A stretch of 64,000 nucleotides of DNA from Psammoneis japonica. Lineage: Eukaryota. Location of the stretch: assembly GCA_008632985.1 (NCBI GenBank), contig QPGO01000074.1:62001-126000 (forward strand), written 5' to 3'. The notes below the pieces were generated by a model that ran no database searches, was not told where the DNA came from, and saw only the letters and a list, made by a program, of their open reading frames with translations. How positions within the stretch are numbered: position 1 is the stretch's first letter; each line of letters opens with the position of its first letter. This document shows positions 10,491-61,780 of this stretch, piece after piece. The translations under genes and the position numbers were made by a program.

Positions 10491-10519
10491 GCAGAAAGAC
10501 AATTTTGGAGCAATCACCT

Positions 10520-16330: not shown

Positions 16331-16414
16331 CATGCTTTCTTTCTGTGTTTTCTTGGAGTTGCAGGAGTGGAGCTGGGTGCTTGACATCTTGCACCACACA
16401 CCAGCATCCACATT

Positions 16415-30020: not shown

Positions 30021-30029
30021 CCCCCCCTC

Positions 30030-31750: not shown

Positions 31751-31802
31751 AAGGAGGCGGTGTGATCTAAGCTGAGGGAGTCTCAGCTGTGAAGAATCGT
31801 CA

Positions 31803-33086: not shown

Positions 33087-36000
33087 GGTGACTTGCAGAG
33101 TGCCTCAGCTTCAGTGGCAGGAGTGGACTGCATCCACATTGCTCTGTTGGTGCGGTCCATCACCCAATTGGGTGCTCCGCATTTTAGATTTTTGGTGCTG
33201 CCACGCTATGCACTGGACCAACCGACGCACGCAACCGACCAACCACTCCCAACTGGGAGGTCTGCAAGTGGTGCGGAAGACACTGGACAGCAGGCAACCC
33301 CTGTGGGCAACCGGTGTTTGGAAAAATCATGTGAACGCTGGACAGACTCTGCGTGTTTTTCATCCATGCCATCCGTTGAAATGTTGTTCTTGGCAGACGA
33401 TCGGCAACAATGGGGTCAGTTCTTGCGGTGCCCCGTCATGGGTCAACAATGCTGAAAAACCCATTTTTGTTGATTGAGGTGCCTTTTGCAATCGCCCACA
33501 CATTGAACATGGTGCCAATCATCCCGTGGTTTGGCTTTGTGATCGATTGATCTGGCCACCACAATCTGTCCGTTGATCATGCTTTGTGTGCTGGATCTGG
33601 AGAATCTCCGCAAGCCAGCCAATTGTGCATGATGCTTGCATTGTCTTCCTTGACTTCAATGCACACATTGGAGCATGAGCATTGCAGTTGGGTTTTGCTG
33701 TTGGCATGGTCTGGGATTGTGATCCCGCCACCTCAGATGCCTCTCTGATGATTGCACTGGATCCGGGTGCAGTCCGCAAGCCAGTTGACATGGATTGCAG
33801 TTCAATCCAGCCTCGTTGATTTTGATCTGTTGTGTCAAAACATGAGTGTGACATCTGCCACAGCCCATTGCCTTTGCTGTTTGCTTCACACCCATCTCTG
33901 ATCGTGTTGAACCCGGATCTTCCGCGCAACATTCTTGCCACATCCTCGGCCCTTTTCTTGTTGCTTCTGATCTGTTGTGCCAGAGCAATGATGTGCTGTC
34001 CACACAGCCTGCTGGTGTTCCCTCTTCACTTTACTCTCATCACATTTGCTTGATGAAACAGGCATCTTTGCTGCATCTCTCCACTCATTCGCCATCACGG
34101 ACGTCACATTTTACATTTTTTGTGCTTCATGCATGTGTGTGTCACAACATTCTTTGTTGACCATTGCAATGGTTTCACATGAATCACTTTTGTCACATGT
34201 TCTGATTTGAACAAAATGCATCTTTCAATGCTTGGGCGAGATGCAACTCCCCTTTTGCATTTTTGATGAAATCGATTGCATCATTTTTGATGTTGCTTTG
34301 TGCACATTTTCATGAACAATCCCCCCACCCATGAGTTTCCACAAATGTTTGATCTCAGACGGAACTGGCACTTCATCTGCGTGGTCCACAGATTCCATGG
34401 GAAAAATCATGACCACAACTTTGAAATTTTAAAACTCTCAGGACCGGACCGGATTTTCCCTCCATTTGCTTTCCTTTTGTCAAAATTTTGACCTGCTCTG
34501 TCTGATGCTCAGTCTTGTTGACCCACCCTTGCACAACTCTGGTCATGCAGAGCAAATCCCGCTGACTTGTCATGAGTTTCCAGCACAATTTCTGAGCAGA
34601 TCTGCAACAAAATTCTCATCTGAAAAACTCACTTCTCTCTCACAAAACCCCGGTTTTGCCTTTTTGCACTCAGCTTTTTTGTCTCATTGCAACCCTTCCG
34701 TCCAGCCATGGCCGCCAATGTTCTTGCCACAATCAAACATGGTGCACAACTTCTCCTGCCAAGTGCTTTTTGCAGTCAGGCACTGAGGCTGAGTTCTTGC
34801 TTAACCAAACAAAGCTTGCCCTCCATCATGACACCAGCTCTGCCATTGCTGACTTTGTCTGTGGTCAGTTTGAACAGCTCCTCATGTTCTGTGAAGGACG
34901 CATTGTCCCAGTCACAAAACCCACTTCCTTCCTCAATGGTGGCAATGAAGCCAAGCATTTGTGCAGCTTCCTCAATGCCATCGGCAAAGTTGTTCCCATG
35001 TTGGCAACTTGCCAATGTTTCAAGGCACATTTTGTCTCCTTGGCACCTCAAGGCGACGTGGTGACATGCAACTTGCCTCGTGCTGAGACTGCTTTGGATG
35101 ACATTGAAGGGCCTCTACAGCCCAATGGCGCCAGCAATCCTCCATCCCTTTGGCACCTCAACTTTGGCAATCCTGCCATTGCTGAAGAACAGCCAGTCAT
35201 CACTGCTCCCCCCCCTCCTTTCCTCTCCCTCCAGGTTGCTCCTTTCCTCTGGAATTCATTCCTGGAAATGATTGTCCCAATCTGGCTGCTGAGTTTCTGG
35301 CATTGCACATGTGGCAGAAAAGGCCATTGGCTGCATCCAACAGCATGATGTGGGGCATTCTCTTGACCAAGGAGGACCTCTTTTTGATCAAGCCACCAAT
35401 GGTCTCCAAGTTGTTGATGACAATTTCACAACTCTCAAAGTCTGCAACTTCTGTGATGACAATTTTCATGTGGTTGTGCCCTTTTTGGATGGTTGCGCAA
35501 GCATCCAAACTGCCATCAGGACATTCTCCAACTTGACCTGGCAGACTCTTGGGGCCATGGTTCAAGGCCCAACTGCAAACAATGTGCAAACGGAGTTCAG
35601 ACAGGTGCAGCTGCAGTCACTCAAAGCCCTGTCACTGTCAACGTTGACACCCCTGAGACCAAGAAGGATCAGGATCTCAGGAAGAGGGCTGCTGACATTC
35701 AGTCTTGGTGCTCTTTGTCCTTTTGCCACAAGGTGGTGGGTTCTGATGCCATTGCTCTCAGCACACTCAAGCCAGTTTTTGTCAATGCTTTCCAGGAGTT
35801 GAGCAAGACCAAAAGGGCTTGCTCTCTCTGTGAGGTTGTTGTTGCAGCTCTCAACAGCCAGAAATCAATGGATGTCTTTGATCAAGTTGTTGCCTTTTGC
35901 CAGCTTGTGCAAATGATGCTTTCCCTGATGGCATTTGTTGCTTTTGTCTTGCTGACCAACCTCCAAAAGCTTTGGTCACAATGTGTCTTGCTGACACCAA

Positions 36001-36307
36001 CATCATGAACTTCTCCACTCCCCACATGGACAACGCAGAATGTTCTCAGAAGGCGAAGGAAGGCCAGGAGATTTCCAAGCATTCTCTTGCTGCAGATTCA
36101 AAGAACACAATGACCAAGTTGATCAAGAAATCCACCCTTTGCAACAAAGGTCATGCCTGTGACTCCTTGGACGTTGTGTCTGCTCTTGCCAACTTCAGGC
36201 TTGTCTTCAATGCTCTCATTGAGAACTTTGATGAGACAGCTCTCTGGCAACAGCTTCTCTGCCACCACCGCGTGACTTTTGGCAAGAGTCGAAAGCAACG
36301 GGTTGTG

Positions 36308-36744
36308 TGCAACACACAGCTGCCAATGAGAGTCAGTGCATCACGGCGACGTGTTGCAGCCTTTAAATGTCACAAAGGGCGTGACAAAAACAACCTTTTG
36401 TCTGCATGCATGCTGCATTGTGAATTCATGGCGGAGTGGTTCATCGCAACCATCAGGCAGGAGGCCAGGGGTTCGAAACCCTGAGTGGGAGTTGTCTGCA
36501 GCAACGTTGATCACTGTCGAACGCGCAAAACTCTGTGCAGTTCTGTGTGTTCCTTCGCACTGTTCCGCCAAAACCGTGCAGTGTCAGCACACGTTGGTAA
36601 AGAGCCGCATGGGCGCGTGATGCATGGGGAGGAGTGCAACACACAGCTGCCAATGAGAGTCAATGCATCACGGCGACGTGTTGCAGCCTTTAAATGTCAC
36701 AAAGGGCGTGACAAAAACAACCTTTTGTCTGCATGCATGCTGCA
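36308..36744 (+). mobile_element. 437-bp miniature LTR element (TRIM-like): 110-bp LTRs 36308-36417 and 36635-36744, 4-bp TSD TGTG
   Basis: TG...CA LTRs differ at one base. Polypurine tract ggggaggag precedes the 3' LTR. Absent from the paralogous gag copy at ~38755. Confidence 0.85.
36426..36490 (+). promoter_or_regulatory. tRNA-derived Pol III promoter-like segment (A box TGGCGGAGTGG, B box GGTTCGAAACC)
   Basis: D-arm-like gcgg-agtggttca-tcgc and T-arm-like caggg-gttcgaaa-ccctg; no proper anticodon arm. Confidence 0.55.
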
Positions 36745-39700
36745 TGTGAGCAATGGCAACACCCATGAAATTGCTGCAAATGTGCTCAATGACACTCAAA
36801 ACATCATCCATGCCTTCTTCCAACTTTGAGGTGTTCTGGGTTGCAGCGAAGCCATTCCCAACTTGCAGGATGTCAGTGTCTGGGCTTTGGACATCTCTGA
36901 GTGCTTGGCTGGCCAGTCGACTCAGGATCTGGAGACCAACATCAGTCGTGTCCCCCCCCCTGGAACTTTTGGCAGCAAGTGCTTGCTCTGTCAGCTTGCT
37001 GCAGAGTCAGGTGCCACTTTGGCGACTGGCAAGCACCCAGCTGAATCACCCCCTGCTGCAGCATCTCCATCCAAGAAGCTTTGTTGCAAACAGACATTGA
37101 CTTGTGCAAGAAGGATGGGTCTCCCAGCTGTCTCTGGAAATCCTTGCCAGCCTCCCATCACCCTGGTTGTGGCCAAGAAAAGCGCAGATTCAAGCACTGA
37201 AGAGCACCTGTGTCCTTGCTTCTTGACACGCGGTGCTCACTGCAGCCATCAGAAATGCGGCAAGCCCCACACTGCAAACTTGTGTGCAACCTCCCCGATG
37301 GGAAGTGTGGCGAGTTGATCAATTTCGTCAATGATGCTGGCAACCTCTTTTGCTGAGAGAAAGGGCCCCAGCGGCGCATCTGCTCAGTCTCATCTTTTGA
37401 CAAACTGGCAAACCTTCTGTTTTAAAATGTCACCTCACACTGAAATTCCTTTGGTTTTTTTTCAACCTTGCTCCTCCAGCTTGAATTGTTGACTTGGCTG
37501 TTGCAAATTCTTCAGGCAAAACCGTGGGTGCAAAATGGGACCCAGGATGCAGCCCCTCTGCTTCCTGCTGGAAACAAGCAGATGCCATCTGACTTGCTTG
37601 GTTCAGCACCTCAAGATGTCCCAGATGCAGCACCTGTCTCTTTGGATGAAATCAAAGAGCTTCGCCCTGTTCTGCCCCCCATGAATTGACCAAGTGCCTT
37701 GCCATGCCATTGCAGCTCTTCCCCTGGCTTTTCCTCTCCCTCCAGGTTGTTCCTTTCCTCTGGAGCTCATTCCTGGAAACAATTGTCCTGGTTTGGCCGC
37801 TGAGTTTCCGACGCCAAGTGTGTGGCAGAAGGCCATTGGCTGCATCCAACAGCACAACGTGGGTTGTTCTCTCAACCAAGGAAGACCTCGTTTTGATCAA
37901 GCTGCCAATGGTCCACAAGTTGTTGATGATTTCATGAACCTCAACATCCACAACTGTGGTGACAACAATTTTCAGGTGGCTGCACTCTTTTTGGACGGTT
38001 GTGCAAGTGTCCAAACTGCAATCAGGACATTTTCCAACTTGACCTGCCTGGCAGCAGACTCTTGGGGCCATGGTTCAAGGTCCTGCTCCAAACAATGCAA
38101 ACAGAGTTCAGGCAGGTGCAGCTGCAGTTGCTCAAGGCCCTGTTGCTGTCAACGTCAATGCCCTGAGACCAAGAAGGACAAGGATCTCAGGAAGAGGGCT
38201 GCTGACATTCAGCCTTGGTGCTCTTTGTCCTTTTGCCAAAAGGCAGCAGGTTCTGACACCATTGCTGTTGGTGAGCTCAAGCCAGTTTCATTGATGCTCT
38301 CCAGGAATTGAGTGAGACCAAAAAGGCTTGTTGTTGCAGCTCTCAACAGCCAGAAATCAATGAATGTCTTTGATCAAGTTGTTGCCTTTTGCCCAGCTTG
38401 TGCAAGACTTTCCCCAAATGCTTTGGTCATGATGTGTCTTGCTGACTTCAACATCATGAACTTCCTCATTCCCTGTGTGGACAATGCGGAATGTTCCCAG
38501 AAGGTTGAGGAAGGCCAGGAGATTTCCAAGCATTCTCTTGCTGTGGATTCCAAGAACAGGGCTGCTGAGTCAATGAAGAAATCTGCCCTCTACAACAAAG
38601 GTCATGACCGTGACTCCTCAGATGTTGTGTCTGCTCTTGCTGACTTCAGGCTCATCTTTGATGCTCTCATTGAGAACTTTGATGCAACAGCTCTTCAGCA
38701 ACAGCTTCTCCACCATTGCCGCATGGCCTTTGGCGAGAGTGGCAAGCAATGGATCACGAGCAACGGCAACACTCATGAAATTGCTGCAAACATGCTCAAC
38801 AACATTCAAAACATCATCTGCACTTTCTTCCAACTTGGAGGCATCCCAGATTGCCACGAGGCTGTTTGCAACTTGCAGGATGTCAGTGTCTCCAGGCTCT
38901 GGATGTCTCCGAGTGCTTGACCAATCAGTCGATTCATGATCTGGAGACCAACATCAGTGGTGGTCCCCCTGGAACCTTTGACAGCAAGTGCTTGCTCCGT
39001 CAGCTCACTGCAGAGTCAAACACTGCACCCAACACTCTGAGCCTTAAAAAGCTCAATCTTCTCATTTCTTTTCTTTGGGATTTGCTTGGATGCAAATGTG
39101 ACACAAGAGCCCTCACTGTTGGCATGGTGGCTCACAACTTGCACAAGCTTTTGATCATCCTTGGGGATTGGCTTGCATGACAACCGCATCAGTTGGTGGA
39201 CATGTTGTCTCCACCATGCCTGCTGGAATTCTACACATGTTGCTGCCCCTGTGCTCATTGCTGGCTCTTCCTTCTTCAGAACATTTTCAATGCAGACTTG
39301 GTTGCTCATTGTCTTGTCGCACAGTGGATGTTTGAATGACAAGGCAAGAAGGAGCAAACTTTGGACCAACTTCCTTGCAAGCTGCACCACTGTGTGTCTT
39401 CCATTCTCTCTTGGGAAAAAGCACAATTTGTCTGCCATGTGCACTTTGAGACTCCAGCATCAGAGCCTCTGCATTGGGCCATCTGCTGTTTGGTCAAGCA
39501 TCTCAAGTCAACTCCCCAACCAACAGGAGGCACAGATTGGAACTGTCATCCCACGTGACCCGCGAAGGCTTGAATTCTTCCCCAGATTCCAGAGACTGTG
39601 TTGTGATGAATGCTCTTGAATTTGTGGTGTCTGTCCTTGTCTTGGTGGGGATTGTTGCTTTTGTGGAGTCCATTGATGAACCCTTAGATCCAGAGTGCTG

Positions 39701-41654
39701 GTGAGGGCACTGTTCCTCTTGCAATTCCCAAGAACTTGGTTGTCCTGCAAAAACAGACAACTGGACTAGTTCTGGTTGACAAAATCGTCAGACTGCTTGG
39801 TCTCTTTGGGGGGCAGCAGATGCTTTGCATTTGTCTGCACTTTGCACTTGTGCCAGAATTGGCCCCAACTTGCAGGGCAAGCACTGTGAGCTGGCATCAA
39901 CACGCAATTGGCAAATGACATTGCCCATCCATCTACCCTCACCTCCCTCATTCTGTCCATGTTGCTCAGCCTAAAGACTTGGACCTTTTTCTTCCTGAGT
40001 CAAGAACTGCCACAGCCAATTTACTCTTGGTTGTTCTCCAAGTCATGGCCGGCCCCTGTGCAGACCCCACCGCACTTGGGATGGCTCGTGCACAATGCAC
40101 CCACTGTTTCAAATTCACCAAAGATGTGAAATGGAATTTGGATGACCCAGAGATGCTCGTGGAAGATCTTCCAGAGCATTGCTGCCAGCTGCAGCTTGCC
40201 ATGCATGCCTTGCATGTTGCAGCATGGGTTGACTCTGTTTTTTGTAAACAACTCAAGTTGGATTCTGTCCTGTGTTGAGTCAGAGATGTTGCAAAATTCA
40301 CTCATCTGTTTGGTTGCTGTTGTGATCATTGCTGTGACCAACCTTCCAACACTGGAATGGGCAAGATCTTCACAGCCATTGAGCAGGAGCTTGAGCAATG
40401 CAATGCAGCTCCAAATCATTGTGAAAGTTTCAGTGCTGAGATGCTCACCAAGTTGAAAGCTCGTGCTGATGCTCAGCATGCAGTGGATCCGGACAGCCTT
40501 GCTGGCACCAGGTGTGCCTTTTTGTGGTGCCCATCTCCAAGAATGGGTGCAGATGGCCAGTTGCTCCAGCCTGGTGTGTGTGGTGCCTTGACAGCATCTG
40601 CACTGAAGCTGGAGACTGTCAATGCCTCACCAATGCTGACACTTTGCACATCTTGGCTGAGTCCATGTCAAAGATGTGGGCATGGTGCTGGTGCAGACAG
40701 AAGAATGGCCAGCATGGCAAAGAGAAACTCTTCACTCTGAATCTTTGCCATGGAGGTCTTGATTTGGTCAAGCCCATGTGCCGCATCATTGAGTGGTTTG
40801 TCTGCCTTCGCAGTGCATCTGACACAACAACTCTGCTGTCATTGTGTGAGCCCATGGGCAAGGAGATTGAACTCATTGCCGCCAAGGCAATCAAGAAAGA
40901 CATGCATGAAGTGGCCCCAAGGTGTGTAAACTTGATCCGGTCAAGGACAAAAAGGCTGTCAAGTGATGGTCATCCCACTTGCTTCATGTCGAAGCCTGCT
41001 CAGTGCTCCATCAATTGGCTTTGGCACAGAAGCCATCCAGTGCTCTTGCACTGGCATTCAACTGCCTTCACGGCATGTCTTAGAAACTCTGCGTTGTTGG
41101 TGGACCACCAAGGCAGAGCTCTTGACCGCTCGGCGGCCATGCCCCACCTTTTGTAAATTTTTCAAAATTGTTTGTTGAAATTTTGTCTTTCTCATTTGTT
41201 TCTGGTTTGTTGACATGTTCGCATGTTTTGACCAGTTGTCTGGGCCACACTCATGAGCACTGGGATCTCAGCCCACCCGTCACATGTGGACTCCACTTTG
41301 GCATTGTTTTCAATTGAGCACAACAAGGCAGTTGGCATTGGCGCAAATGTGAGGTGACCTCCATGCTCCAAACCCACCCTGATTGGATGGTGTCATCTGT
41401 GTCGTGTGCATTCTTGAAGGTGCAAATGTGCTTTCATGACTCATTTTGAACTGTCCAATGGCTCTTGATGTGTTCCTGGGCCTTGGAACACGTCTTTGTG
41501 ACAATTTTCTTTTTCAGCGATTTGACACCTCACATTTGGAGGTCAATTCCATGGTTTAGATTCCATTTTTCTCTTTTTTTCTGGCTGGCTCTGATGCCTC
41601 CGATGACATGGGCACGCACACCGCACTTCGCACAATGCGTTGGCAGCCATCTGG

Positions 41655-42205
41655 TCTGTTCATGCATTGCTGGGGAACAAAATGGACGCAGCTAGATCTG
41701 CAGATTTGTCCCCCTTTTTCTGGCTGTTGTCTCAGCAGCATCACGTGAACACACATGTTTGCACATGTTCTGTGCATTGGATGTGTTCATGCATTGATTG
41801 TTGAGGCCATTTGGCAGCTCTGCACTGTGACACGTCATCGGCGGCATTGCACAGCCAAGCCAAGGCGGTGGCAGGGAATGTGCGATTTTTGGTGCCAAGA
41901 CAGCAGGCGAAGCACAAGGAGAGGACACCTTGCAGGCAGCTGCACTTTTGGAGGAGTCACCATGTGACAGCAGCACGCAGTTGAAGGTGGATGGACAGAC
42001 AACAGACAATGATGAGAGGCCGCCCCAGTTCCTCTCATTGTTCTTGGCCGGCAATCAGCAAAACAATGGGGTCAGATGCAGTGCCCCCTTGTGGGTCCAT
42101 GACACTGAAAAATTCCCACCCAGCCCATCCCTCTGTTCGTGCAATGCTGGGGAACAAAATGGATGGAACTGGATCTGCAGATTTGTTCCCCTTTTTCCCG
42201 CTGCT
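41655..42205. repeat. Short direct repeat (~41655-41730 and ~42133-42205)
   Basis: tgctggggaacaaaatgga....ct.gatctgcagatttgt.ccccttttt occurs twice. Confidence 0.75.
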
Positions 42206-42656
42206 GTGAAACATCACAGCTGAGCCACTCGGCTTGACCCACCACGCTTCCACTCCATCACAGTGGGGCCTTCAAAGCCTGAGCCTTGCAATCACTAAAT
42301 CACTGGCTGACCAATTGACCCGCTGCTCCACCAAACTACAATCCCAACTCTCCAACCTCAATTCGAAATCCATCCCTTTTCCTGCCTACATGACGACTCA
42401 GTAAGTTCCACCCTTGCTCCGCGTCTGCCCCCCCCCCCCCCCCGCGCCACTGGGTTATTGTGCGATCTGCATGTAAGGTACCGCATGCATCGCCGACTTC
42501 TTTTTGATGGTAACGACATCGGGCTTGAAATTCAACGTTGCCCGATAGATCCATCAGTTCTTCACTGAGGCCTGCCTTTGATCGTTCGTTCGGTTTCGAC
42601 GGAACTTATCAAACTGTGAGAACATATTTTTGAAAGGCTTGAGCTGTTTCGCTGCG

Positions 42657-48853: not shown

Positions 48854-50069
48854 TCACGCCTCACAAAATCCCACAACTACATCTGTAGCTACCTTGCCAA
48901 CGACATCCATTTTGTAACCTCCTTCCTGGATAAACACGGTTGGGATATCGCGAATCGTTCGGCCAATCGTTTGGCCCACTTTAGAAAAGTCATCACCGAT
49001 GAGCTTGAAGCCGGCTCGTCGAATGCTCACTTCGTCTCCTTCGTGCGTATCGAGACCTAGCGATACCACCAGCGCCTTTGCTCCAAAGTCAACAATTCTG
49101 TTCAAGCCCTGTTGTAATGCCACTTTGTAATCCTCCCATGTGGTGCCTGGAGATAGGGGCAAATGTAACGTAGTACCGACGCCGTCACCCGCTCCAGTTT
49201 GATCCGAGAAGCCACTATGAAACGGATAATCAAAGTCAGGGTCGCAGTGCAGTGAAACCACTAAAACAGTCGGATCCTCGTAAAAGATGGATGCTGTCCC
49301 ATTCCCACAGTGATAGTCTTCAATGTAACACAATGTATGAAAAAAGACTGTTGAGTAAGACTTCCAAATTACTTGTTTCTCAAGCCAGCCTTGTTCGACA
49401 CGTACCGACATCTAGAATTGCCACCTTGGAGCCGCCACCTAGCCGCGATTGAAGGCTCCGGGCGGCATAGGCTGCATGATTGATATAGCAGTATCCCCCA
49501 AAGCTATCATGAGCTGCATGGTGTCCAGGATGAGTTGTCACAGCATAACATGCACGTGATTGAAAGGATTCATGAACGGCTAAATTCACCACGGCCGCAT
49601 CCCACGTTAACTCCTCCTTTAAACGAGCAACAATCGGAGTGCACAAATCGGTGCAAAAATAAGCCACCTTTCCCATAACATTTTTGCTTGGACGTTGATG
49701 AGGACATCGAGGAAGCGGAACATTCAGCGGAACCAGTGGCGGAGGCACTCCCGGTGTGGTCTCTCGCAAGGCACAATCCGGATCTCTTCCGTCTCCAAGA
49801 TCTTCCCATTCTTTCCAGGCGGTCGTCAGAAACGCAAGCAGCCCTTTACTATGCACTGAATCATAATCGCGAATGGCGCCTGCTTGTGAACATGGTGGTG
49901 TCACGAATTTCACATTTGCTTGCGTTTGCCGTTGTCGCAAATGTTGCAAAATGAGTGCGCGACGATGCCGTGGGTGATTGTGAGTGTCGTTTGCATCCGC
50001 GTCCTTGTCGACCGAATCTAGAGGCTCCTCCGACTCAGAGGCACTCCTCGATACAACCACCAACTCCAT
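48854..50069 (-). CDS. Histone deacetylase superfamily / acetylpolyamine amidohydrolase-like protein (intron 49318-49405)
   Basis: PGHHA, GGYCYIN, spliced ILDVDYHCGNGT, VSLGLDT, QEGGY. Confidence 0.88.
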
Positions 50070-52277
50070 GTGCAGTTACGGTACAGTATCGAGGGTTGAT
50101 GTGGAAGCAGTGCTCCTCTGCCGCCGTACGTATTGCGCATCGAAAGGTCGCTGAAAAAGTGAGCACAAACGGACCCGTAGGATTCTACGTCTATGTACCA
50201 CGATATCTGTCCGTGACCCGGGTTGCGTCGCGATGATGATTAGATTATTCGCGATTGATTCGCGATCGATGGTCGATGGCGACGCGATACAGTACAGTGT
50301 ATGGGGAGAGGGGAGAGCGCAGAATGGAGAAAGGAGTTGAGGTACAGTATTGTGAAAATTGGCTCATCTTCGCTGGGAAAGACAGCACGGACACGGCCAA
50401 CTTGTATACCGGAGAGTAGCCAGACAAGTTCGTTCGCCCACTTCGTTAAGCATGTCGGCGAAAAAGGCACCTTGGGTCAAACGGCGTCAGTAGGGCCTAG
50501 TAAAAATTGGCCGGCAGTAGGGAAGCACACCGGTCTTAGCAGTGTTAGGAAGGGTTTCGGTTAAGCACGAAACTGGAGTCGTTTCCCTTTGAGCGTTTGT
50601 CAATGCCATGGGCAAAGGCTTTCATAGATTGTTGCTCTCACTTTTTCAAAAAAAAAAAAAAAAAGCCCGGAGAATAGTCTTGAGTCTAGGCTTTTCCCTG
50701 TTGTCATGACATTTAGTTCTCTTGGATTTGTGAGGGCGGCGTTCGCCATGCCCATGTCATACGATCCGTCCGCACTTCATAGCTCAAAAAGTTTTTGACA
50801 GAGATATCCGGAGCTCAGCCATCCATCCATCACGATCACGATCTTCACGATGTGTGAGTGCCAAAGTTTTGAATTGATTGTGTGTTACTAATGTATTGAG
50901 AACATTTATGGGATCAAGTGGCCGACGAACTGCAAATAGAAAGAGAATCAAAGAGGTACAGCACACTGCACAAAGGCTCCGGACAATACACACGATTGAA
51001 TCCTCTTAATCGTTTCTTCATCGTTCCATTGCCGTTTCGAGTCACTCTTTTTGATGTCGTCATAAGGGTCGTAGTCACACAAATCCACGCTGCAGGTCAA
51101 AAGGAATAATCGATGCTTTGGGAAGGAACCACCTACGGCCCAAACACCCCAAAACGCACGACCGCCCAATCCGGCCGAAAACGTCTTTGTCTCGGAGAAT
51201 CAACTCGCCGCTAGCATGAGAGTGTGAAATGGAGTCGTCTGGAACTGGTTTGAATAAAATCCGACCAATATTGCCTGTGTTGTGATCGATTCATCTTGGG
51301 GTGTAAGCGAGCATTCCGATGTGACGTAGGCAGAAAAGGTCGTCGATCAAGTCTTGACACCTTTGTTGACACCCGTTCTCATCCACTCCCGGCTCAAAAA
51401 TCAAAAAGCAAGATCAAACAACACCCAAAAAAGAGAAATCAAAGAACAAAGTAAGTGACATCGTGCAATCATCATTCTATCATCTCCACATGCACTGGGG
51501 GTGATGCACTGGGGGTGTAGGGGAACGCACGGGAAGGCGCCAGAGAGTTTTTGTTGACTCGGTCGGGCGCCGTCATCTTGCTTCCCATCGAAATCGCGAG
51601 TGTTCGACAACAAACCATCCACACCCCACCTTGTACTGTACTGTCCAATGCTTCAAGGAGGCCATGAACTCCTCACAATTGTCGGCAGTGGCCTTTTCCG
51701 GCCATGGTTGCCGCGGGCAGGTGTGGCGGGGAGCTTCTCAGGTTGAAGGTGGTGTTCGCTTGGGGTTCTCATCGTGACTGAAAATTGACACTCGTGACTC
51801 GTTCGGAGCTTCTCTTTTGAGATTCCGATCGAATGACTCGATCGACTCCCTTATCAAGCACGACATACACGCACGAACCACGACCCACGACCACCGATGT
51901 ATGACCACCACTGAGCACAGAGCACACCGTTGACCGTGACGAGTAAAGAGTGATGAATGAGCGCCGGCAGAAACATGGGTCATCACATGCACTTGGAACC
52001 ACAGCGTTGTGACTGTCATCCAGAGTCCACTCTGAGTATGATTTAACCTGCAGAGCATTGGTTCTTTTGTACGAGCACACATCGGATGCACGAGCGCCAA
52101 CCATACCACACATCACCCCCGCCGTCCTATCGTTCACTCGTTCATCAGCACTATGACAGTGCCGCTTGTCCAAAACAACAACATGCGACAATTCAATGCT
52201 AACACTGACCGTCGTTTCATTGTTTCGATTAATACAAGAGCAATATCACGGAAACTTGATTCGAACCCACCAACGAT

Positions 52278-53830
52278 ATGAAGTTCATCTTCCTTTCCAT
52301 CCTGGCCGGTGCCAGTGGAGTTCTGGCGGCCCATCCCAGCCTTCGTCACGAGGAAGGCTTCTTGCCTCATGCCAGCATGGTCGACAAGGTCGGTCCGCAC
52401 CAAGGACAGAGGAAGTTGAGTACCTGCCAAGAGAGTCACTCCACTCTGTTGATGTACAACCCCGGTGCCGATCCAAAGCCATGCATGAATGAAGTCACGA
52501 AGACAGACTTTGGATGTACGGCCGAAGATGTCAAGATTGCAGCAGTCAAGATCGAGAGACTCTACCGCATTGTGGGTGGCGTGGAGGAAGACATTATGCC
52601 AGACCCGATCACCAAGGAATACGATTGCTCCGCCGGAGAGGACTTGCTCGTCGACCTTGAATTGGACCTGACGTCCACCGCCACCGAGAGATACGACATT
52701 GCCACATGGCTAAGCTACGAAGGCGCCGACTTTGCGTACATTGGAAATGATTGCACTGTCGCCAGCTATAATGTTGAAGCTCTTGAGAACATTGACATTT
52801 TAACCAGGCCGGTGGGAAAATACGACGATAACTGTGGAGATGTTTACGGTGTCTCCTCTCCGTATTCTGCGGATGTCTGCGGCTTGCCGTTGAAATGCTT
52901 AGATGCGAGTGCCACCAGCGGGGGCACCGTTACGGTCGGCGCTTGTAATACGTGGAAGCAGAACGTCAAGGGTAAAGTATGTGATCAGGCTGACCGATCC
53001 ACCTTGCTCCCAGGAGCCCCCTCCAAGTGCAAGTGCGAGTATCTCCACTTCCCCATTAACATTCGGTGTGGACTTTCGGCCACGTGCAACCTGTCACCTG
53101 CAACGCATGAGTGCGTTGCTGTTGATGGTGAACCGCCCACGCACTCTAATGTCGCTGATGTCTTTACTGTTACGTCTGACCCCGACAACACTTGTGATCA
53201 CGAAATGACACTCGCGAGTTCCGACAATGGAGGAGCAGGCTGTGTGGCAGACCCTCACGTGATTACCAGGAGCTACGAGTTAGATGATGGAAATGCCTGG
53301 ACGGACCCGGTCGACCCTTGTGAAGAGGCGTGGACGTACGTGGATACCGCGAACCCATCTCTTGCCGATCCCGTTGCGCACGGTCCCTACCAGTGCCTAA
53401 AGGATGTCCCAACTGCTCAGACATTGGGGGCTACTGATGACTGTGATGAAAGCCCAGATGTTAATTACTTGGGCGAGACTAAGTCTCCCCAAATGAGGAC
53501 TGCACTTTTACTCTCACGCGCACTTGGGAAGCGAAGGATTCTTGTGGCAACACGGATACCAAGACTCTGGACATTCAGGTCGACATGACGGTAGCACCCA
53601 CTTTCACCAACTGTCCTCAACACAAGACTGTCAACATCTGCAAAGACACGTACATTCCCGATGCATCGCCGACCGCCACGGACCGTTGCGGTAACCCTGC
53701 CACTGTCAGTTGCAACGACTGTACTTGGGTGGCTGAAGGCGTGCTTAGCCGCTCGTGGACGGCCACGGATGATTGTGACAACGAGGCGACTTGTACGCAG
53801 CTAGTCACATTCAACATGGCTTGCACCTAA
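52278..53830 (+). CDS. Secreted cysteine-rich protein with HYR-like repeats; one frameshift at ~53490
   Basis: Signal peptide MKFIFLSILAGASGVLA; repeats DTxxPxL...ATDDC...TRTWxAxDxCGN. The reading frame continues in another frame after a C-run at 53487-53490. Confidence 0.7.
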
Positions 53831-54124
53831 GTCCGCCCGGCGGGGCCTTTGAATGTCGCACAAGGTGTTGGCGGTCGGCATTCAACCTAAGTAGTAGTTT
53901 AGGAAGAGGTTCGAGGCGCGACGACAAGGTACATTGGGTCGGACTCGGGCCGCCAGATACATGTTGACGATGGCTCGTGGCGCAACAAGGTGGCGATGAT
54001 GGGGTGCGAGCGAGCCACTACATATGGACGAGGTGTGGATTTGGTTTCATATACATGTGAATGCTTGCGACATACGCGTCAAGTTGTGGACCCGTTGATG
54101 TGGTGTGGTGGGCGGACTGCAACC

Positions 54125-54342
54125 AGTGTGTATCGGAGAGTAGCCGGACAGCTATTCTCGCCCATGCCGTAAATATTTTGCGAAATAAGGCGCCCTGGGC
54201 CCAGGACGAAAGAGAGACTTATACATGAAAAACCCTTGGCTGCAGGAGACCAAAAAACCCGTACTCAGCAGTGAATAAGAATAGGAGGTTTCCGTTGTGT
54301 GCGAAACTGGAGTCGTTTCTCTTAGAGCATTTGTCAATGCCC
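54125..54342 (+). repeat. Diverged duplicate of 50400-50610
   Basis: ggagagtagcc.gaca and gaaactggagtcgttt....gagc.tttgtcaatgcc are shared. Confidence 0.7.
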
Positions 54343-54647: not shown

Positions 54648-54815
54648 CTATGCCTTTACGTAAATCACGCTCAAATTGTTGGCAGGCATTTCAACGGTTT
54701 CTTGGAGTGTCAAGCCACAAGCCGATGCTTCTTGGACAACCTGCTCCAGATCCCGCTTGCCCCAACTCGGGTCTCTCATTCGAAGACTCTTGTCAAAGTT
54801 TCTGTCCAAAAATGA
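54648..54815 (-). pseudogene. C-terminal fragment of a DUF938/METTL26-like methyltransferase
   Basis: NFDKSLRMRDPSWGKRDLEQVVQEASACGLTLQETVEMPANNLSV; the N-terminal part is missing. Confidence 0.7.
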
Positions 54816-55012
54816 GACTGTCCGAAAATGAGACGAGGAATGGACTTGTGAGACTGACCCAAATCCAAATTGTTTGCCAAAGACAGTCTCCAGAGAGAGA
54901 AAGAGACCCATGGCAATGGTTCCCATATGCAGCATGACTTACAAATTAGACTCGACAGCCGTCCCGTGAACCTTGTGGCTTGCAGGGTCCATGACAATGC
55001 AAGACACCTCCA

Positions 55013-58000
55013 CCCTAGAATTGCCACCTTGGCGCCACCACCTGGCTGCGATTGAAGGCTCCGGGCTGCATGGGCTGCATGGCCAATGATGTGGCAGTTT
55101 TCCCCAAAGCCGCTGTCATGAGCTGCATGATGTCCAGGATGAGTTGTCACAGCATAACATGCACGTGATTGAAAGGATTCATGGACGGCTAAACTCACCA
55201 TGGCCGCATCCCATGTTGACTCCTCTTTTAAGCAAGCAACAATCAGAGCTGCATGGTTGACACAGCAGTGTCCCCTGAAGCTGTCATGAGCTGCATGATG
55301 TCCCAGATGAGTTGTCACAGCATGACATGCACGTGATTGAAAGGATTCATGGACGGCTGCATTCACCACGGCCGCATCCCACGTTAACTCCTCCTTTGAA
55401 CAAGCAACAATTGGAGTGCACAAATCTGTGCAAAAACAAGCCACCTTTCCCATGACATTTTTGATTGGACACTGATGAGGACATCAAGGAAGTGGAACAT
55501 TCAGCAGAACCAATGGCGGAGGCTGTTGGAAAGTGTGCATCAAAAGCACAAACACAGAAATTGGACAGCATGCACCAGCCCAATGTGCTCCACATGAAGC
55601 ACCAGAGCTGCCAATGAAGCAGTCATCATTCTCTTTTAACTCTTAGAAAGCATTGCAATGACAAGCTTGTCCATTCTGCCCTCAGGATCAGCCTTGGAGG
55701 ACTGAAGCAGCCCTGAGACAGCTGCCAGAAGGGTGAATCTCAGCAGTTGAAAGAGAATGAACCAGCTGAGAGCTGCAAAAGTGAGAAAGAAGAAAAGAGA
55801 GTCATTCTTGCCAAGTGAGAGACATTTTCCTGCTTTTCCAATCCAACTTGAGTGGAAGAGGCAGAGGCAGAGGTGGCAACAGGAGCCATGGAAAAGGACC
55901 CTCTGGAAGAGGAAACAGGGGTGGCAAGCAGAGCCACAAGAGCATTGAAGACTGCGTCTGCTGCATTGGAAATGCCAAGCAAGCATCTGATTTTCAGATT
56001 GCAACTGAGTTCATCATCAACTGCACAAAGAAAACCTGTGAATTTGGAAATGATGTGGCAACTGCACTCAGCACTTACACTCCATGTGACATGAGTTCCA
56101 AGAAGCCAACTTTGCAGGTCAGCTCAACAGGAGATGACAAGATTGATGTGGCACTGAACAAGCAGTGTGAAATTGAACTCAAGACCAAATTTGATGCCCA
56201 CATTAAAAGGACTCAGATGCATGAGAACACCTTGATTAAGGCTTGTGCTCTGCTCTGGGAAAGGTGCTCCAAGGCCATGAAGAACAAGATTCAAGCAAGG
56301 AATGAATTCCAAACCAAGATTGAGAACAACTCCATTGAATTGCTCAAGACCATCAAGGAGCATGCATTGAATCATCAAGAGCACAGATGCGACATGGCCA
56401 TCATCTCAGATTCTATGAGGGCTGTGTTGGAAACCAAGCAAAAGGAAAAGGAGAGTCTGCAAGATTGCACCAAGCAATTCAGGGTTGCAAGAGACGTCAT
56501 GAAGTCTCACATCAGGGGACCAATTGTCCTCACCAAGATGGCAGAGGGCATGTTGGATTGTGATGAGTCCATGCAGACACTGTCAAGAAGTGTCAAGAGA
56601 AGGCATTCAGCCAGCTGATGGGTTTCATGCACTTGGAGATTGCAGATCAACGGAAGCACAGATCAATTGTCACTTCTCACAGGAATGAACACTCAACAGT
56701 TGCTCAAGAACAACCAGCATCCCAAGTCCATTGCAGAAGCCAACATGGTGTTGAGAAACCACACCTTTGATTGTGTCAAACAGCCAACAGGAACAGGAAC
56801 AATCAAAACAACAACTCTGATTCCAAGAAACAAGAAGAAAATCAAGAAATCACCCTGTCTTTTGCTCAGATGGAAGGCAGGTGTGCTGCTGTTGTGGAAA
56901 GGCAGGACACAAGTCCACCAATTGCAGGGAGAGAGGCTCAAGAGCTCAATCAGAATGGTCCATCAACAAGGCCAAGGCCAAAGAAGAAACAAGCACTGTT
57001 CAAGCAGCTGATGATGCCACCAGTGCTGCAACCATTGGGACCAAGTCTACAGTTTCTGGATGGGCTGGCACTCATGTTGATGCATCTCTCCACCAAGGAC
57101 AGTCTGATGACATGAGAGACTGGATTTTGTTGGACAATCAGTCCACAACCACCATCTTCTGCAACAAGAAGCCAGTCGCAGACATTTGTCTGTCTGATGA
57201 AGTCATGAGATTGCACACACACAGAGGAGTGCTGATCACGACTCACAAGGCCACTGTGCCTGGATTTGGTGAGACCTGGTTTAATCCAGATGCAATCACC
57301 AACATTTTTGCTCATTCCAACATGAAGAAGAAGCACAGGATCATGTGTGATTCCTCCCAAGACAATGCATTCACCGTTCATCTGCCCCACAAGAAGGTCA
57401 AGTTCAAGGAGGATGCAAGTGGGCTGCATGTCTACAAGCCCAAAATCCAAGACATCGGAGCTCAGCTCCAATTCACACAGAGCATTGAGGAGAACAAGAA
57501 GTTCTGCACTCCATGCCAATTTGAGCAAGCCAAAGAGCTTGAGAATTGTTGCACGTGTTGGGAAACCCAACCATGAACGATCTGAAGGCCATCATTTGCG
57601 TGAAGTGACAGCATCAAGAAAACAATCCTGTTACAACCAAGGACTTGGATTTGGCTGAGAAGATCTTTGGACCAGACATTGGAAGCCTGAAAGGCAAGGT
57701 CACCAGGTGAAAGCCAGAGCCAGTTGTGGAAGACTGCGTTGAGATCCCAAAGGAGCTCATTGCGGCTCAGCACAAAGTCACTCTTTGCCTGGATGGACTC
57801 AAGGTGAATGGATTGTCATTCCTCACCACAGCGTCATGAACATTTTTTATTGCACTGCACAGCTGCTGAAGGATTTAACCCAAGCAACCCATCAGGAAGC
57901 TCTGGAAGGTGTGCTGCAAGTCTAGAACAAGGCCAATTTAAAGGTCACGCGCATTCATTGCAACAACAAGTTCAGGCCCATTGGAAATGCACTTGAAGAC

Positions 58001-61000
58001 AAGTTCAATCTTAAGATGAACTGCACTCATGCTCAGGAGCATGTCCCAGAAGCCAAGCAGAACAACCGAGTCATTCAAGAACATGCCAGGGCAGTCTGTC
58101 ATCAACTGCCATTCAAGCATCTTCCAAAGCTCATGGTGGAAGTCATGGTCACTGAGGCTGCTGAGAAAGTCATTATTTTCCAGCCAAGCAAGGTGTTTCA
58201 AAGCATTGCAGTCCAAGAATGATTCTCCATCAAAAGAATCTAGACTGTGACAAGAGCTGCAAAATCACATTTGGCACTCATGTGCAAGCTCACAATGACC
58301 CGGATCCCAAGAACACCCAAGAGTCACGGACCTTGGATGGCATTTGTTTGCACCCAACCAACAGCAACCAGATTGGACATGAGTTGCTGCACTTGCACAC
58401 TGGCAAAAAGATCACCCGTTGCCAGGTCACCCCTGTGCCCATCACTGCAGCCTTCATCATTTGGCTGAAATGAACAAAAGATGCCCAACAGTCTCAAGAT
58501 TGAGAACCGCACTGGAATTGTCATGCGCAACAGTGCTTGGATTGCAGGAGTGAATTATGATGAAGATCATTCAAAGATGAAGACTGCAATCTAGAAGAAG
58601 ACACTAAAGCAAGGGACAAGGAAGACAACAAGGAAGGCAACACAGACTGGGGAGACTCCAAAAGAGGAGTCAGCCAACAAGAGCTGCAAGGAACAATCCA
58701 AGATCAAGAGTTGGATGAAGAAGCCAGCTGCATCAGCGAGGAGCAAGATGAAACTCAAGACAAAGCATCCCAACAAGAAGAGCATCTTGGAGACAATGAC
58801 AAAGAAGGTTCCCAATCATTGGAAGGAAGTGGAGTCTCCCAAGAAATTGATGACATGATTGAACACATCAATGAACTGCAGAATCAAGAGCAGGAATTCT
58901 CTCCAGAAGTGCAAGAGCTCACTGCCAAAATGCAAGAGCCAGAATCCAAAGACGAGTCTGGAGACAAACAGAGTGAAACTGAAGAGAGTGTTGAAGAAGA
59001 GCCTCTTGCCAAGTCAAGGACAGGAAGAACTCTCAAACCTCCAGTGAGATTTGATGATTGCCGGTGTCATTTACAGACTCAGGCTCACTTGCAAGTCAAA
59101 GAGTGCAGCTTGGAAATGGCCAGGATTGTGGCCATGACAATGTGCCAATGGAATGAAAAGATCAGTGCAATCACCGCTGTTGAGGAAGCACATGAATTCA
59201 TTCAAACTTGCAGCTTGGCATGAGGACTCCAGAAGGTTGGAGAAGAAGGCCACAAGTCGGCCACATCAGAGCTGCAGCAGATCCATGATGGAGCAGTTTT
59301 CAAGCCCATTCACATCAAGGACATATGACTCCTCTGGAGAGGAAGAGGGCCATGGAGAGCCTCATGTTTCTCACAGAGAAAAGAGATGTGGACAAATCAA
59401 GTCCAGATTGTGTGCAAACGGAAGCACGCAATGAGAGCGCATGGACCAAGACAAAACTGCCAGTCCACAGCATCCACTGAGTCCATTCTCATCACAGGAG
59501 TGATTGATGCCAAGCAAGGCCAAGACGTCATGACAGCAGACATTCCCAATGCATTTGTGCAGATGGACATTGAGGTCAAGGAAGAGAAGATCATCACGAA
59601 GATTTGTGGAAGGATGGTGGACATTTTGCTGGAATTAGATCCTGAAACTCGTCAGGACCATGTTGTGTGCAAAGGCAAGCACAAGGTCCTCTGCGTTGAA
59701 ATGTTGAAGGCACTCTGTGGAGTGTTGGTGTCTTCCACATTCTTTGTTGCAAGAAGTTCTGTCAAGACATCAAAGGAATTGGATTGAGATAATCCGCATG
59801 ATCCATGTGTGGCCACCGCACTGTGAATGGCAAAAAGCACACTGTGACATTGCATGTGAACGATTTGAAGTTGAGCCACATTGACAGCAAAGTCAACAAT
59901 GAGTTTAAGATTTGGCTTGACAAAACTTGTGCAGACAAGATTGGAAAGGTCAAAGTGATGTGTGGAAAGAGGCATGATTGCTTGGCCATGATTCTAGATT
60001 ACAACATTCCAGGAATGCTGCAAGTGGACATGGTGCTTTACATTTAAGGCGTGATCAGGGACTTTCCGGAAGAATTGTCTGTGACATGGATTGCCCATGG
60101 AACAAGAAGCTCAACAAGGTGGACAAGAAGAGCCAGAAGTTGGACCTCAAAGGTGCTCAAACATTTTGCACTTTTGTGATGAAGGGCATGTTTCTTTGCA
60201 AGAGAGCCAGACAGGACATCCAGCCTGGCATTTCTTTTCTCACCACTGGAGTCAAAGAACCAAATGAATTGGATTGGATGAAGCTGGTGAGGGCCATGAA
60301 TTTCCTCAAGAAAACCCAGCATGAGATTGCAGCCACATCTGCTGGAGACAAAGTCATCATCAAGTGGCATGTTGATGCCTCCTTTGCAGTTCACCCAGAC
60401 TGCAAAAGCCACACTGGAGCAACGATGACTCTTGGAAAAGGTGTCATTGCATCTGTCAGCATGAAGCAGAAGATCAACACCAGGAGTTCCACCAAAGCAG
60501 AAATCATTGCAGGAGACAATGTTGTGTCAAAGGTCCTTTGGACCAAGCTGTTTGTTGAAGCCCAAGGTTTTCCAGTCAAGCACAACATCATGCATCGTGA
60601 CAACCAGAGTTGCATGAAATTAGAAGAAAACGGAAAAGCCAGTTCAGGCAAACGCACAAGACACTTCAACATCAAGTGTTTTTACATCACCAATCTCATC
60701 AAGCATGGAGAACTTGAGATTAAGTTCTGCCCAACAGACAAGATGATTGGAGATCACATGACCAAGCCTGTGGTTGGCAAGAAGCTCATTGTTGATCGTC
60801 AAACTGTCATGAACATTCAAGTGCCTGAGATGGGCAAACACACTTGGAAGTGCAAAAAATCTTGTCATTGGTCAGCAGGAGCATGTTGGAAAGTGTGTGT
60901 CAAAAGCACAAACACAGAAATTAGACAGAGTGAAGAAGACACATGTGCCAGCGCTGATGTGCTCTACGTGAAGCAAGAGAACTGCCAATGGAACAGCTGC

Positions 61001-61780
61001 TGTGTTCTCTTTTGACTCTTGGAAAGCATTGAAATGACAAGCTTGTCCATTTTGCCCTCAGGATCAGCCTTTGAGGACTGAAGCAGCCCTGAGACAGCTG
61101 TCAGAAGGGTGAATCTCAACAGAGGCACTCCAGGTGCGGTCTCTTGCAAGGCACAATCCGGATCTCTTCCGTCTCCAAGATCTTCCCATTCTTTCCAGGC
61201 GGTCGTCAGAAACGCAAGCAGCCCTTTGCCATGCACCAACTGACAATCGCCAATGGTGCCTGCTTGTGAACATGTTGGTGTCATGAATTTCACTTTTGAT
61301 TGCGTTTGCCATTGCCGCAAATGTTGCAAAATGAGTGCGCGACCACGCCTTGGGGGTGATTGTGACAGTCGTTTGCATCTGAGATTGTGAGAGTCGTTTG
61401 CACCCGAGTGTCGACGGAATCAAGAGGCTCCTCCACCTCAGAGGCACTCCTCGACACAACCACCAACTCCACATGTCCCGGTAGCTACAGCACCGAGGGT
61501 CGATGTTAAGAGCAGTGCTCCTCTGCTGCCGCATTGCGGCTCTGCGGTAAAATGCCATTGAAAAAGTGAGCACAAAAGGTGGGATTCTACAGTGCAGTAC
61601 ACACTGTAGGCAAGTACCACACGGTATCTGTCCGTGACCCGGGTTGCATCGCGAAAATAGCGATCGACGTACCCAGTACTATGGTACTTGAGGGGGTGAA
61701 CGGTGAACGCAGAAAGCAGAAAGGAGTTGAGTTATTGTGAAGCTCATCTTCGCTGGGAAAGACGACACGGACGCGGCCAA
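55013..61780 (-). pseudogene. Duplicate of the HDAC gene 5' part and upstream region (49411-50400), split by the copia insertion, with an internal ~170-bp tandem duplication
   Basis: 55013-55523 and 61122-61780 align to 49411-49746 and 49742-50400. Confidence 0.9.
55524..61121 (+). mobile_element. Full-length degenerate Ty1/copia (CoDi-type) LTR retrotransposon; LTRs 55524-55745 and 60884-61121; 5-bp TSD GAGGC
   Basis: TG...CA LTRs; GAGGC at 55519-55523 and 61122-61126, single in the intact gene at 49742. Gag knuckle CCCCGKAGHKSTNC, protease WILLDNQST, integrase EHVPEA, RT ADIPNAF/HVNDL, RNase H VDASF/DNQS/TKP. Many stops and frameshifts. Confidence 0.95.

Follow-up and report, generated by a model that had tools for sequence, protein, structure and literature searches.

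Which TpA steps survive in DNA that has lost nearly all of them, and what does the pattern of survival say about the agent that removed the others? The question is raised by a copia-type long terminal repeat (LTR) retrotransposon in nuclear DNA of the diatom Psammoneis japonica. The element lies in a window of 64 kb (contig QPGO01000074.1, positions 62,001 to 126,000), from which all statistics given here are drawn. A reading made from the sequence alone had proposed that 5'-TAY-3' is edited preferentially, that YTAR sites survive, and that a sequence-specific enzyme is at work. The answer reached here, with a probability of about 0.65, is that a TpA-directed transition process operates at the DNA level and that the editing machinery has a strand-wise sequence preference; the chemistry of the reaction lies outside that figure.

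The window was segmented with a two-state hidden Markov model (HMM) on T followed by A, along with dinucleotide counts per kb. Five kb-scale domains are found in which the observed/expected ratio (o/e) of TpA is only 0.03-0.09, as against 0.52-0.60 elsewhere. The five depleted domains add up to 36,457 nt with 132 TAs and the four normal domains to 25,519 nt with 912. It must be noted that the domains are cut by TA density itself; flank identity played no part in the segmentation. CG o/e is 0.13-0.50 and CA/TG o/e 1.5-2.0 in the depleted domains, whereas CG o/e is about 1.0 in the normal ones; GC content is the same in both (0.47-0.50). The boundaries are sharp. One domain goes with the copia element and its target-site duplication (TSD) and others with repeats, so that the loss is regional and attached to mobile DNA. 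It is not limited to mobile DNA, however, since a zf-MYND gene and a copy of a P-loop gene lying inside depleted domains are edited as well.

Three paralogue pairs, each with a normal and a depleted copy, allow the change to be followed site by site. Only 2 of the 31 TAs in the normal copies are kept, while 13 have become CA, 13 TG and 3 AA. Transitions are found at 26 of 63 A/T bases inside TA (that is, at 26 of the 31 TA sites) versus 10 of 441 A/T bases outside it. When depleted copies are compared with each other, eight pairs yield 65 sites at which CA stands against TG and 14 at which TA faces TG or CA; at no site do both copies read TA.

Codons tell the same story. Sixty positions of the copia polyprotein are consensus Tyr (Tyr in at least 60% of homologues; a few are overlapping-frame duplicates near frameshifts). 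They now read Tyr in 5 cases, Cys in 22 and His in 16, while all other residue types are kept at 52-85%. Accordingly low Tyr contents are seen in the copia pieces, 0-0.6% against 2.6-5.2% in the 120 homologues listed of 200 matches. Of 54 Arg positions, 17 now carry Cys, Gln or His, which is ascribed to CpG decay (see below). For the zf-MYND open reading frame (ORF), homologues of about 410 amino acids from other sources match about 95% of its length. The ORF contains 0.2% Tyr versus 1.7-3.7% in seven homologues, and its seven conserved Tyr columns hold five Cys, one His and one Phe. It may belong to a transposable element (TE) or be a host gene that came to lie inside the domain.

The loss of conserved Tyr from depleted copies sets the polarity of the change as TA to TG or CA. 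Pairwise differences by themselves are direction-free, and one could suppose instead that the depleted state is ancestral and that the normal domains gained TA through C to T changes at CpA, in the manner of fungal repeat-induced point mutation (RIP). This reversal is the least credible of the explanations weighed here. Apart from the Tyr codons, it is at odds with the presence of intact housekeeping genes for threonyl-tRNA synthetase (ThrRS) and a calcium-dependent protein kinase (CDPK) in normal domains. It also conflicts with the TA o/e of 0.39-0.95 in the best 80 of 388 related copia loci from metagenome contigs. These 80 loci serve as the unedited baseline for the element; none of them is depleted of TA, which says little about the distribution of the process because the best-scoring loci favour intact copies.

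The copia element itself shows at which level and when the change was made. It has the Ty1/copia hallmarks of LTRs that begin with TG and end with CA, a 5-bp TSD and homology to polyproteins of the gag-PR-INT-RT-RNase H type, with a broken ORF. In tblastn, 41 full-length RVT_2-bearing diatom copia polyproteins cover 55878-60865 with shifting frames; among the matches listed, the closest named relatives come from Fragilaria crotonensis and Nitzschia inconspicua. An unedited paralogue of the flanks, devoid of the element, contains a single GAGGC (49742-49746), at the overlap of repeat families D2 and D4. The two LTRs are 82% identical, most of what separates them being TA to CA/TG and CG to TG/CA changes that arose independently. 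Editing extends beyond the element, to the left by about 860 bp and to the right by about 355 bp, as judged by the HMM and by comparison with the unedited paralogue. Because the LTRs carry independent TA changes and the unique flanks next to the element are edited too, editing took place in DNA and after integration. What the window shows, then, is a TpA-directed, in-place transition process on silent, transposon-bearing domains that spreads into their flanks over a few hundred bases.

The same observations bear on RNA editing before integration, in which an ADAR-like enzyme would convert A to I in the retrotransposon RNA and reverse transcription would fix the outcome. The element is indeed a retrotransposon, and ADARs favour a 5' U (PMC10661471, Table 1). 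However, the two LTRs, identical when an element integrates, have here acquired TA edits independently of each other, and DNA-level differences are also seen in non-transcribed flanks. Moreover, both strands are affected, the edited sequences include non-TE flanks, the P-loop gene copy and the MYND gene, and the 3' preference is for a pyrimidine rather than the G of the ADAR motif 5'UAG (PMC10661471). We regard this origin as highly improbable.

Another suspicion is that modified bases of heterochromatin were miscalled during sequencing or assembly. It draws some force from the fact that the sole DNA run containing the stretch, here called X1, comes from one sample and is possibly the source of the assembly. 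Yet clean TG or CA at each site is not what miscalls on opposite strands would produce, and 65 sites present CA/TG alternatives between copies. The depleted element also bears frameshifts, TGA stops and 18% LTR divergence, and the depleted sequence recurs in the X1 contigs, each piece showing 1-4 differences. An artefact is thus about as hard to credit as RNA editing. It is the LTR, flank, copy-pair and Tyr data, taken together, that contradict RNA editing, artefact and reverse polarity alike.

Survival of TA within the depleted domains depends strongly on its flanks. YTAR accounts for 73 of the 132 surviving TAs versus 153 of 912 in the normal domains (Fisher p 4.9e-20) and for 19 of the 34 survivors inside copia. 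All five domains display the bias when taken singly (p 8.5e-6, 0.065, 1.9e-4, 3.3e-7 and 1.1e-8). By class, survival is 0.70 for TTAA, 0.27 for CTAA/TTAG and 0.16-0.18 for CTAG. It drops to 0.04-0.12 in the four mixed classes, 0.023 for ATAT, 0.014 for GTAC and zero for ATAC/GTAT (0 vs 148), where about 200 would be expected. When each flank pair is normalised by the sum of the four YR cores, which the process conserves, the matrix is unchanged in pattern, from 0.79 (T..A) down to 0.00 (A..C / G..T). Against the family-matched baseline of 80 unedited loci, survival in copia is 0.37 for YTAR, 0.096 for mixed sites and 0.011 for RTAY (p 7e-7).

These figures are well described by a multiplicative per-strand model in which each strand is struck on its own, the rate depending on the base that follows the edited A on its 3' side. 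The fitted rates for this +1 base are 2.27 for T, 1.97 for C, 0.91 for G and 0.21 for A, and the four-rate model reproduces all 10 NTAN classes, observed versus expected. In log-likelihood a uniform model lies 66 units below a simple Y/R model and 79 below the four-rate model, the latter being 12.7 above Y/R. The composition of the survivors deviates at +1 (p 4.6e-28) and also at +2 (p 1.4e-20), where A makes up 55% versus 26%; the effect of position +3 on survival is not significant. As half-sites, TAAA survives at 0.46 and TAGA at 0.27, while the TAY-N half-sites survive at 0.01-0.07 (e.g. TACC 0.011, TATT 0.022). Hexamers grouped by both half-sites form a monotonic 70-fold gradient (0.63, 0.48, 0.21, 0.13, 0.035, 0.009). 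The rule is therefore graded rather than binary, TAT ~ TAC > TAG >> TAA, with additional protection by A at +2.

The observations of the sequence-only reading are confirmed in every point open to checking. The span to which it referred coincides exactly with the limits of the retrotransposon, and the seven contexts that it quoted are surviving copia TAs (at 55637/55644, 56204, 57282, 57923, 58241, 58605 and 59636). The pair of copies that it had examined, 974/7287, indeed has 13 TAs turned into TG or CA, of which 12 read TAY on the edited strand, as do 5 of the 6 at strand-informative sites. The exceptions that it conceded are found too, ATAA to ATGA at 49676 and TTAA to TTGA at 49620. It was likewise right that AA and AT are spared, with o/e of 0.74-1.17 for AT and 0.85-1.65 for AA in depleted and normal domains alike. 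It had also named a uniform NTAN survival after normalisation as the observation that would sink the idea, and the range of 0.79 to 0.00, with a uniform model worse by 66-79 log units, is far from that. As a dichotomy of TAY against YTAR, however, the rule is too coarse. TAG is edited well, as the CTAG survival of 0.16-0.18 attests; it is TAA that is truly refractory, with further protection from A at +2.

Three tests that need no unedited baseline agree with this picture. The first compares depleted copies, counting sites at which one copy alone is edited against those with CA facing TG. The ratio is 9:12 for YTAR, 0:13 for RTAY and 2:25 for mixed sites; YTAR thus stands apart from all other sites (9:12 vs 2:38, p 6e-4). 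The second exploits Tyr codons, which always read TAY on the coding strand and so leave the 5' base as the tested variable. Following C/T, ancestral Tyr codons have become Cys in 18 cases and His in 6, with Tyr in 5; following A/G the numbers are 4, 10 and 0 (p 0.008). All five retained Tyr codons read TTAY. The third concerns bulk products. YTGY:YCAY is 1217:881 in depleted versus 491:473 in normal domains (p 2.7e-4), and RCAR:RTGR is 1148:848 versus 500:460 (p 0.006), while symmetric product classes are near 1 in ratio. The flank bias is thus supported as that of a sequence-specific, strand-wise editing activity.

Two other accounts of the survivors were tried and rejected. A preference for Y-T-A on the edited strand would predict RTAY survivors. 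Back-mutation as the source of YTAR fails because the normal copy reads TA at both informative three-copy sites and the retained Tyr codons are ancestral. The three-copy sites are provided by the left flank of copia (55015-55523), a tandem duplication (55112-55253 / 55280-55420) of the single-copy sequence 49412-49746; with three copies of this sequence at hand, the TA survivors can be polarised as ancestral.

CpG is lost from the same domains by a separate process, presumably deamination of 5-methylcytosine (5mC). Indeed, CpG survival is 0.21-0.53 with little flank effect, and in the paralogue pairs CpG loss is far slower than TA loss: 38 of 61 CpGs are kept compared with 2 of 31 TAs. It is this slower pace and the near-independence from flanks that set the two processes apart. 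That TEs of diatoms carry CpG methylation is known (PMC9998398) and fits this reading. Decay of CpG is common in copia and is found not only here but also in related copia elements of other diatoms, where it occurs without loss of TA. Five metagenome relatives (L032, L056, L047, L037 and L023) have CG o/e of 0.03-0.27 and a normal TA o/e of 0.47-0.85, one example combining CG o/e 0.03 with TA o/e 0.85. 5mC deamination cannot itself yield the TA loss.

A partly edited tract at 1001-3047 illustrates the relative timing. Its TA o/e is 0.14-0.19 while CG o/e is still 0.74-0.87, so that TA editing is clearly ahead of CpG decay. The tract includes an intact P-loop ORF of 532 amino acids (1449-3047) behind 974-1377, an exon-like copy of 7287-7687; compared with 7752-9881 as a possible paralogue, this ORF gave a weak P-loop match only. 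At 19 of the 23 surviving TAs the plus strand has a 5' pyrimidine, which hints at strand-biased editing.

A second DNA version of part of the window suggests that the process was active recently. An X1 contig covering 49986-53432 is identical to the window until position 52200; beyond it there are 25 differences, comprising 23 changes of TA to TG/CA, a single CpG change and an A to G outside TA. Seven more TA edits, up to 54324, come from other X1 contigs. It must be noted that a second run, X2, comes from the same sample as X1, and that X1, being the only DNA run with the stretch, may be the source of the assembly and is not independent support. The contigs of X2 match the unedited version of the window. 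None of the runs listed with this stretch is labelled as RNA; X2 behaves like RNA in that its contigs are spliced. The X1 differences imply two versions of the locus, and in one of them the edited domain reaches about 2.4 kb deeper into a gene that is spliced and expressed. Since the two versions differ by TA edits, the process appears to have been active recently and to be able to damage neighbouring genes.

The X2 contigs also define two introns, 49317-49406 (CT..AC, minus strand, 88 nt) and 51450-52239 (GT..AG, plus strand, 788 nt), the latter ending right where the edited tract of the other version starts. X2 is without coverage over 54605-61609, a gap from which no evidence is drawn.

The recent-looking tract is also where a strand-wise preference of the editing machinery meets its main difficulties. 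In 52201-53398, the only tract of this kind (with a single CpG change), 23 of the 40 TAs have been edited and no bias by flank is seen: 11 of 16 RTAY, 6 of 9 YTAR and 6 of 15 mixed sites. The edited strand is the predicted one at 3 of 6 mixed sites, or 5 of 9 when sites outside the contig are counted. Uniform rates give a log-likelihood of -43.2 versus -50.0 for the rates derived from survival, a gap of 6.8, and the maximum-likelihood Y:R ratio is 1.15, the survival-derived 3.9 being a poor fit in the likelihood profile. The 23 edits are not clustered (19 runs vs 20.6 expected in a runs test). Other points weigh on the same side. Sites with one strand reading TA-R-A survive at 0.21, where the model expects about 0.075, which means that part of the effect crosses strands or lies 5' of the T. 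Among survivors, YTAY outnumbers RTAR by 39 to 16 (p 0.006), an asymmetry for which the simple model has no explanation. Furthermore, all of this comes from a single window, and as to the chemistry, the sequence would fit a modified A and a modified T alike.

One reading of these difficulties is that primary TpA editing is blind to flanks and that the bias of the old domains stems from a second layer, such as sequence-dependent repair or shielding chromatin. The flank-blind tract speaks for it, as does the partial protection that a refractory half-site lends to the opposite strand. If a TA step were shielded, neither strand would be singled out, yet the flank predicts TG versus CA both at Tyr codons (18:6 vs 4:10) and in bulk products. 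It is only the chromatin form of the proposal that is weakened in this way, since strand-specific repair of hypoxanthine could mimic a choice of strand. Overall we hold a second layer to be rather improbable.

Several possibilities may account for the flank-blind tract. Saturating bursts could mask a kinetic preference, the substrate could be in a different state in a transcribed gene, or a second, flank-dependent layer such as repair could operate. The sequence-specific enzyme proposed from the sequence alone is supported in part: the specificity is real and strand-wise. It is, however, graded and not visible in the sole fresh tract, and its seat could be either the modifying enzyme or the repair of the lesion, both of which would fit the data; this limits any claim about an enzyme.

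In the explanation favoured here, the A of 5'-TA-3' on either strand becomes G, equivalent to T to C opposite it, and TA ends as TG or CA. The base at +1 sets the chance of conversion, a pyrimidine being best, G intermediate and A about tenfold worse than a pyrimidine, while A at +2 protects further; the footprint of the process runs from T(-1) to +2. With the two strands acting nearly independently, RTAY vanishes and YTAR lingers, TTAA or T-Y-TA-R-A surviving best. The agent is envisaged as an enzyme recruited to silenced chromatin that would deaminate DNA adenine to hypoxanthine, read as G, and that would contact T(-1) to +2 or more. Adenine deamination is the leading candidate for the chemistry, with a chance that falls somewhat short of even.

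Alternatively, the thymine could be the modified base. A dioxygenase of the TET/JBP type would mark T at TpA of silenced repeats as 5-hydroxymethyluracil (5hmU) or a further-oxidised form, and mispairing or faulty repair would turn T into C; the motif would then read as R-T-A preferred and T-T-A refractory. A to G and T to C on the partner strand are inseparable by sequence, and all the counts above fit this route equally well. It has a precedent in dinoflagellates, where 5hmU made by a TET/JBP homologue is concentrated in repeats and contributes to transposon silencing, and where older work found T to be replaced preferentially in TA and TC (PMC11572971). The part of that article drawn on here reports no T to C mutational consequence. 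In the window, TC is unaffected, non-TA A/T transitions amounting to the 10 of 441 mentioned above. To our knowledge abundant 5hmU has not been reported in diatoms, and this too is counted against the thymine route, which we consider unlikely. What remains of the probability goes to an agent beyond both adenine deamination and the thymine route.

The closest known case is that of the chlorarachniophyte Bigelowiella natans, described in a preprint (bioRxiv 10.64898/2026.01.13.699255) whose main text is the source of what follows. In mutation-accumulation lines of this rhizarian, integrated viral DNA undergoes de novo TpA to TpG/CpA hypermutation, and in the long term TpA is lost with a gain of CpA and TpG. 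Its authors propose a deaminase-type defence by an ADAT2-like enzyme and cite DNA activity of amphioxus and trypanosome ADAT2. Both there and here, nearly every change is A to G / T to C and sits at TpA, within kb-scale regions of foreign DNA, at the DNA level and contrary to the usual GC-to-AT bias; here, the confinement to TpA is seen in the three paralogue pairs and in the X1 version. The mutations of B. natans arise de novo; for the diatom the pointers to such an origin are indirect, namely LTR divergence after integration and the two DNA versions that differ by TA edits at the domain edge.

The targets are different: integrated giant-virus (NCLDV) and virophage DNA in B. natans, an LTR retrotransposon, other repeats and neighbouring genes in the diatom. 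In the NCLDV region of B. natans depletion is mild (Rho TpA 0.45); here it is close to saturation (0.03-0.09). The main text of the preprint, to the exclusion of its supplements, mentions neither a flank motif nor diatoms (the terms flanking, trinucleotide, context and diatom are absent). We found no report of TpA hypermutation in diatoms in the literature within reach, which left out subscription journals and bioRxiv supplements. The dinucleotide signature is thus the same as that of B. natans; new are the other branch of the supergroup, the retrotransposon targets, the near saturation and the measured target motif.

The process also resembles RIP in being an in-place, DNA-level transition hypermutation of repeats with a dinucleotide preference, in leaking into single-copy DNA and in inactivating coding sequences. 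However, RIP changes C to T mostly at CpA, creates TpA and raises AT content, whereas here TpA is destroyed and GC content maintained at 0.47-0.50. The trigger may differ as well. RIP is set off by duplication and mutates both copies, whereas here the paralogous tracts 7287-7687 and 49412-50400 in normal domains have stayed intact and editing has struck their partners, which suggests that duplication of such short sequences (about 400-860 bp) is not in itself the trigger.

Adenosine deaminases of the TadA/ADAT2 kind have the deaminase fold with an HxE/PCxxC zinc site. TadA/ADAT2 act on the A that follows U33, in the context 5'ACG (PMC10661471, as are the other contexts quoted here from its part on deaminase targets). 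As far as target context alone can be compared, the 'UA' setting of TadA and ADAT2-ADAT3 is shared and their U-A-C matches the favoured TAC. On the other hand, TAT is edited here as well as TAC, and G at +2 is not favoured. ADAR hyperediting likewise consists of A to G changes with a 5' U/T preference in repeats; its hot spot is 5'UAG (PMC10661471), whereas here TAG is intermediate, the order at +1 is T~C>G>A, and editing occurs in DNA.

It is tempting to see in these data a diatom lineage equipped with a natural, chromatin-targeted DNA base editor. It would convert TpA to TpG/CpA in mobile DNA, would favour T-A-Y-B over T-A-R-A and would have been active recently. With the rhizarian case, it could represent an old defence shared within SAR, a mirror image of RIP, whose motif would be the fingerprint of the enzyme. 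This wider view is tentative. TpA hypermutation had been described once before, in the 2026 chlorarachniophyte preprint, and a diatom case would extend it to major marine primary producers. The motif offers a handle on the identity of the enzyme, in that deaminases and dioxygenases can be matched to TAY > TAG >> TAA with +2 A protection. It would also help genome annotation, both to separate the editing footprint from CpG decay and to recognise edited pseudogenes, whose Tyr-free, Cys/His-rich, long open frames mislead gene callers. A natural DNA-adenine editor, if it exists, would be of interest to base-editing technology. Finally, collateral editing of a neighbouring expressed gene means that the defence has a cost.

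The coordinates of the features are collected below.

Table 1. Features of the 64-kb window (positions as counted in the window; a dot stands for no strand).
Feature	Position	Strand	Remarks
TA-depleted domain	2..6975	.	includes partly edited 1001-3000 and 974-1377, edited copy of normal 7287-7687
TA-depleted domain	10466..13413	.	TA o/e 0.03, CG o/e 0.13; internal repeat 10658-11002 / 11984-12338
TA-depleted domain	14588..17857	.	TA o/e 0.05, CG o/e 0.32
CDPK with EF hands	20747-22804	+	normal domain
ThrRS, two exons	22856-24112 and 24241-25497	-	normal domain
TA-depleted domain, largest	25840..42292	.	TA o/e 0.04, CG o/e 0.25; internal repeats 35219-36301 / 37730-38752; zf-MYND ORF
zf-MYND ORF	31803-33104	-	open, 433 amino acids; inside largest depleted domain
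Unedited 'empty-site' paralogue of copia flanks	49471..49974	+	normal domain; fixes direction TA to TG/CA
Second DNA version	52201..54324	+	unedited in window, TA to TG/CA in X1 DNA contigs; 30/32 listed differences at TA
TA-depleted domain holding copia	54665..61476	.	TA o/e 0.09, CG o/e 0.23, CA/TG o/e 1.66/1.76; HMM
TSD GAGGC	55519..55523 (left), 61122-61126 (right)	+	read from sequence
Copia-type LTR retrotransposon	55524..61121	+	heavily edited, degenerate; TA o/e ~0.09; three-frame coding pieces, TGA stops
5' LTR	55524..55747	+	begins TG; aligned to 60884-61121
3' LTR	60884..61121	+	ends CA; aligned to 5' LTR

The copia family is multi-copy, since the word depth of run X1 over the element is 250-1000 versus about 50 in its flanks, an excess of 5-20 times; within the 64-kb window no further copia copies were found.

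Many of the 112 ORFs of at least 130 amino acids in the window fall in depleted domains. With TAA and TAG lost, TGA is the sole stop codon there and long frames are open in all six frames; these ORFs are largely a by-product of that loss. A Pfam search with 21 stop-free ORFs of the depleted domains, copia pieces included, returned no family, the MYND ORF being the only one in these domains with a Pfam match.

A CG-rich minisatellite at 14039-14331 (10/15-bp units, 18 register copies, CG o/e about 2.1) sits between two depleted domains and is itself nearly TA-free. A dinoflagellate source of the DNA was considered and rejected, the spliced-leader motif having no match and the ThrRS homologues pointing to diatoms. 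In the normal domain that precedes the largest depleted one, the ThrRS ORF 22856-24112 has best matches at 88% identity; the named ones are from diatoms, for example a Pseudo-nitzschia multiseries model at 80%.

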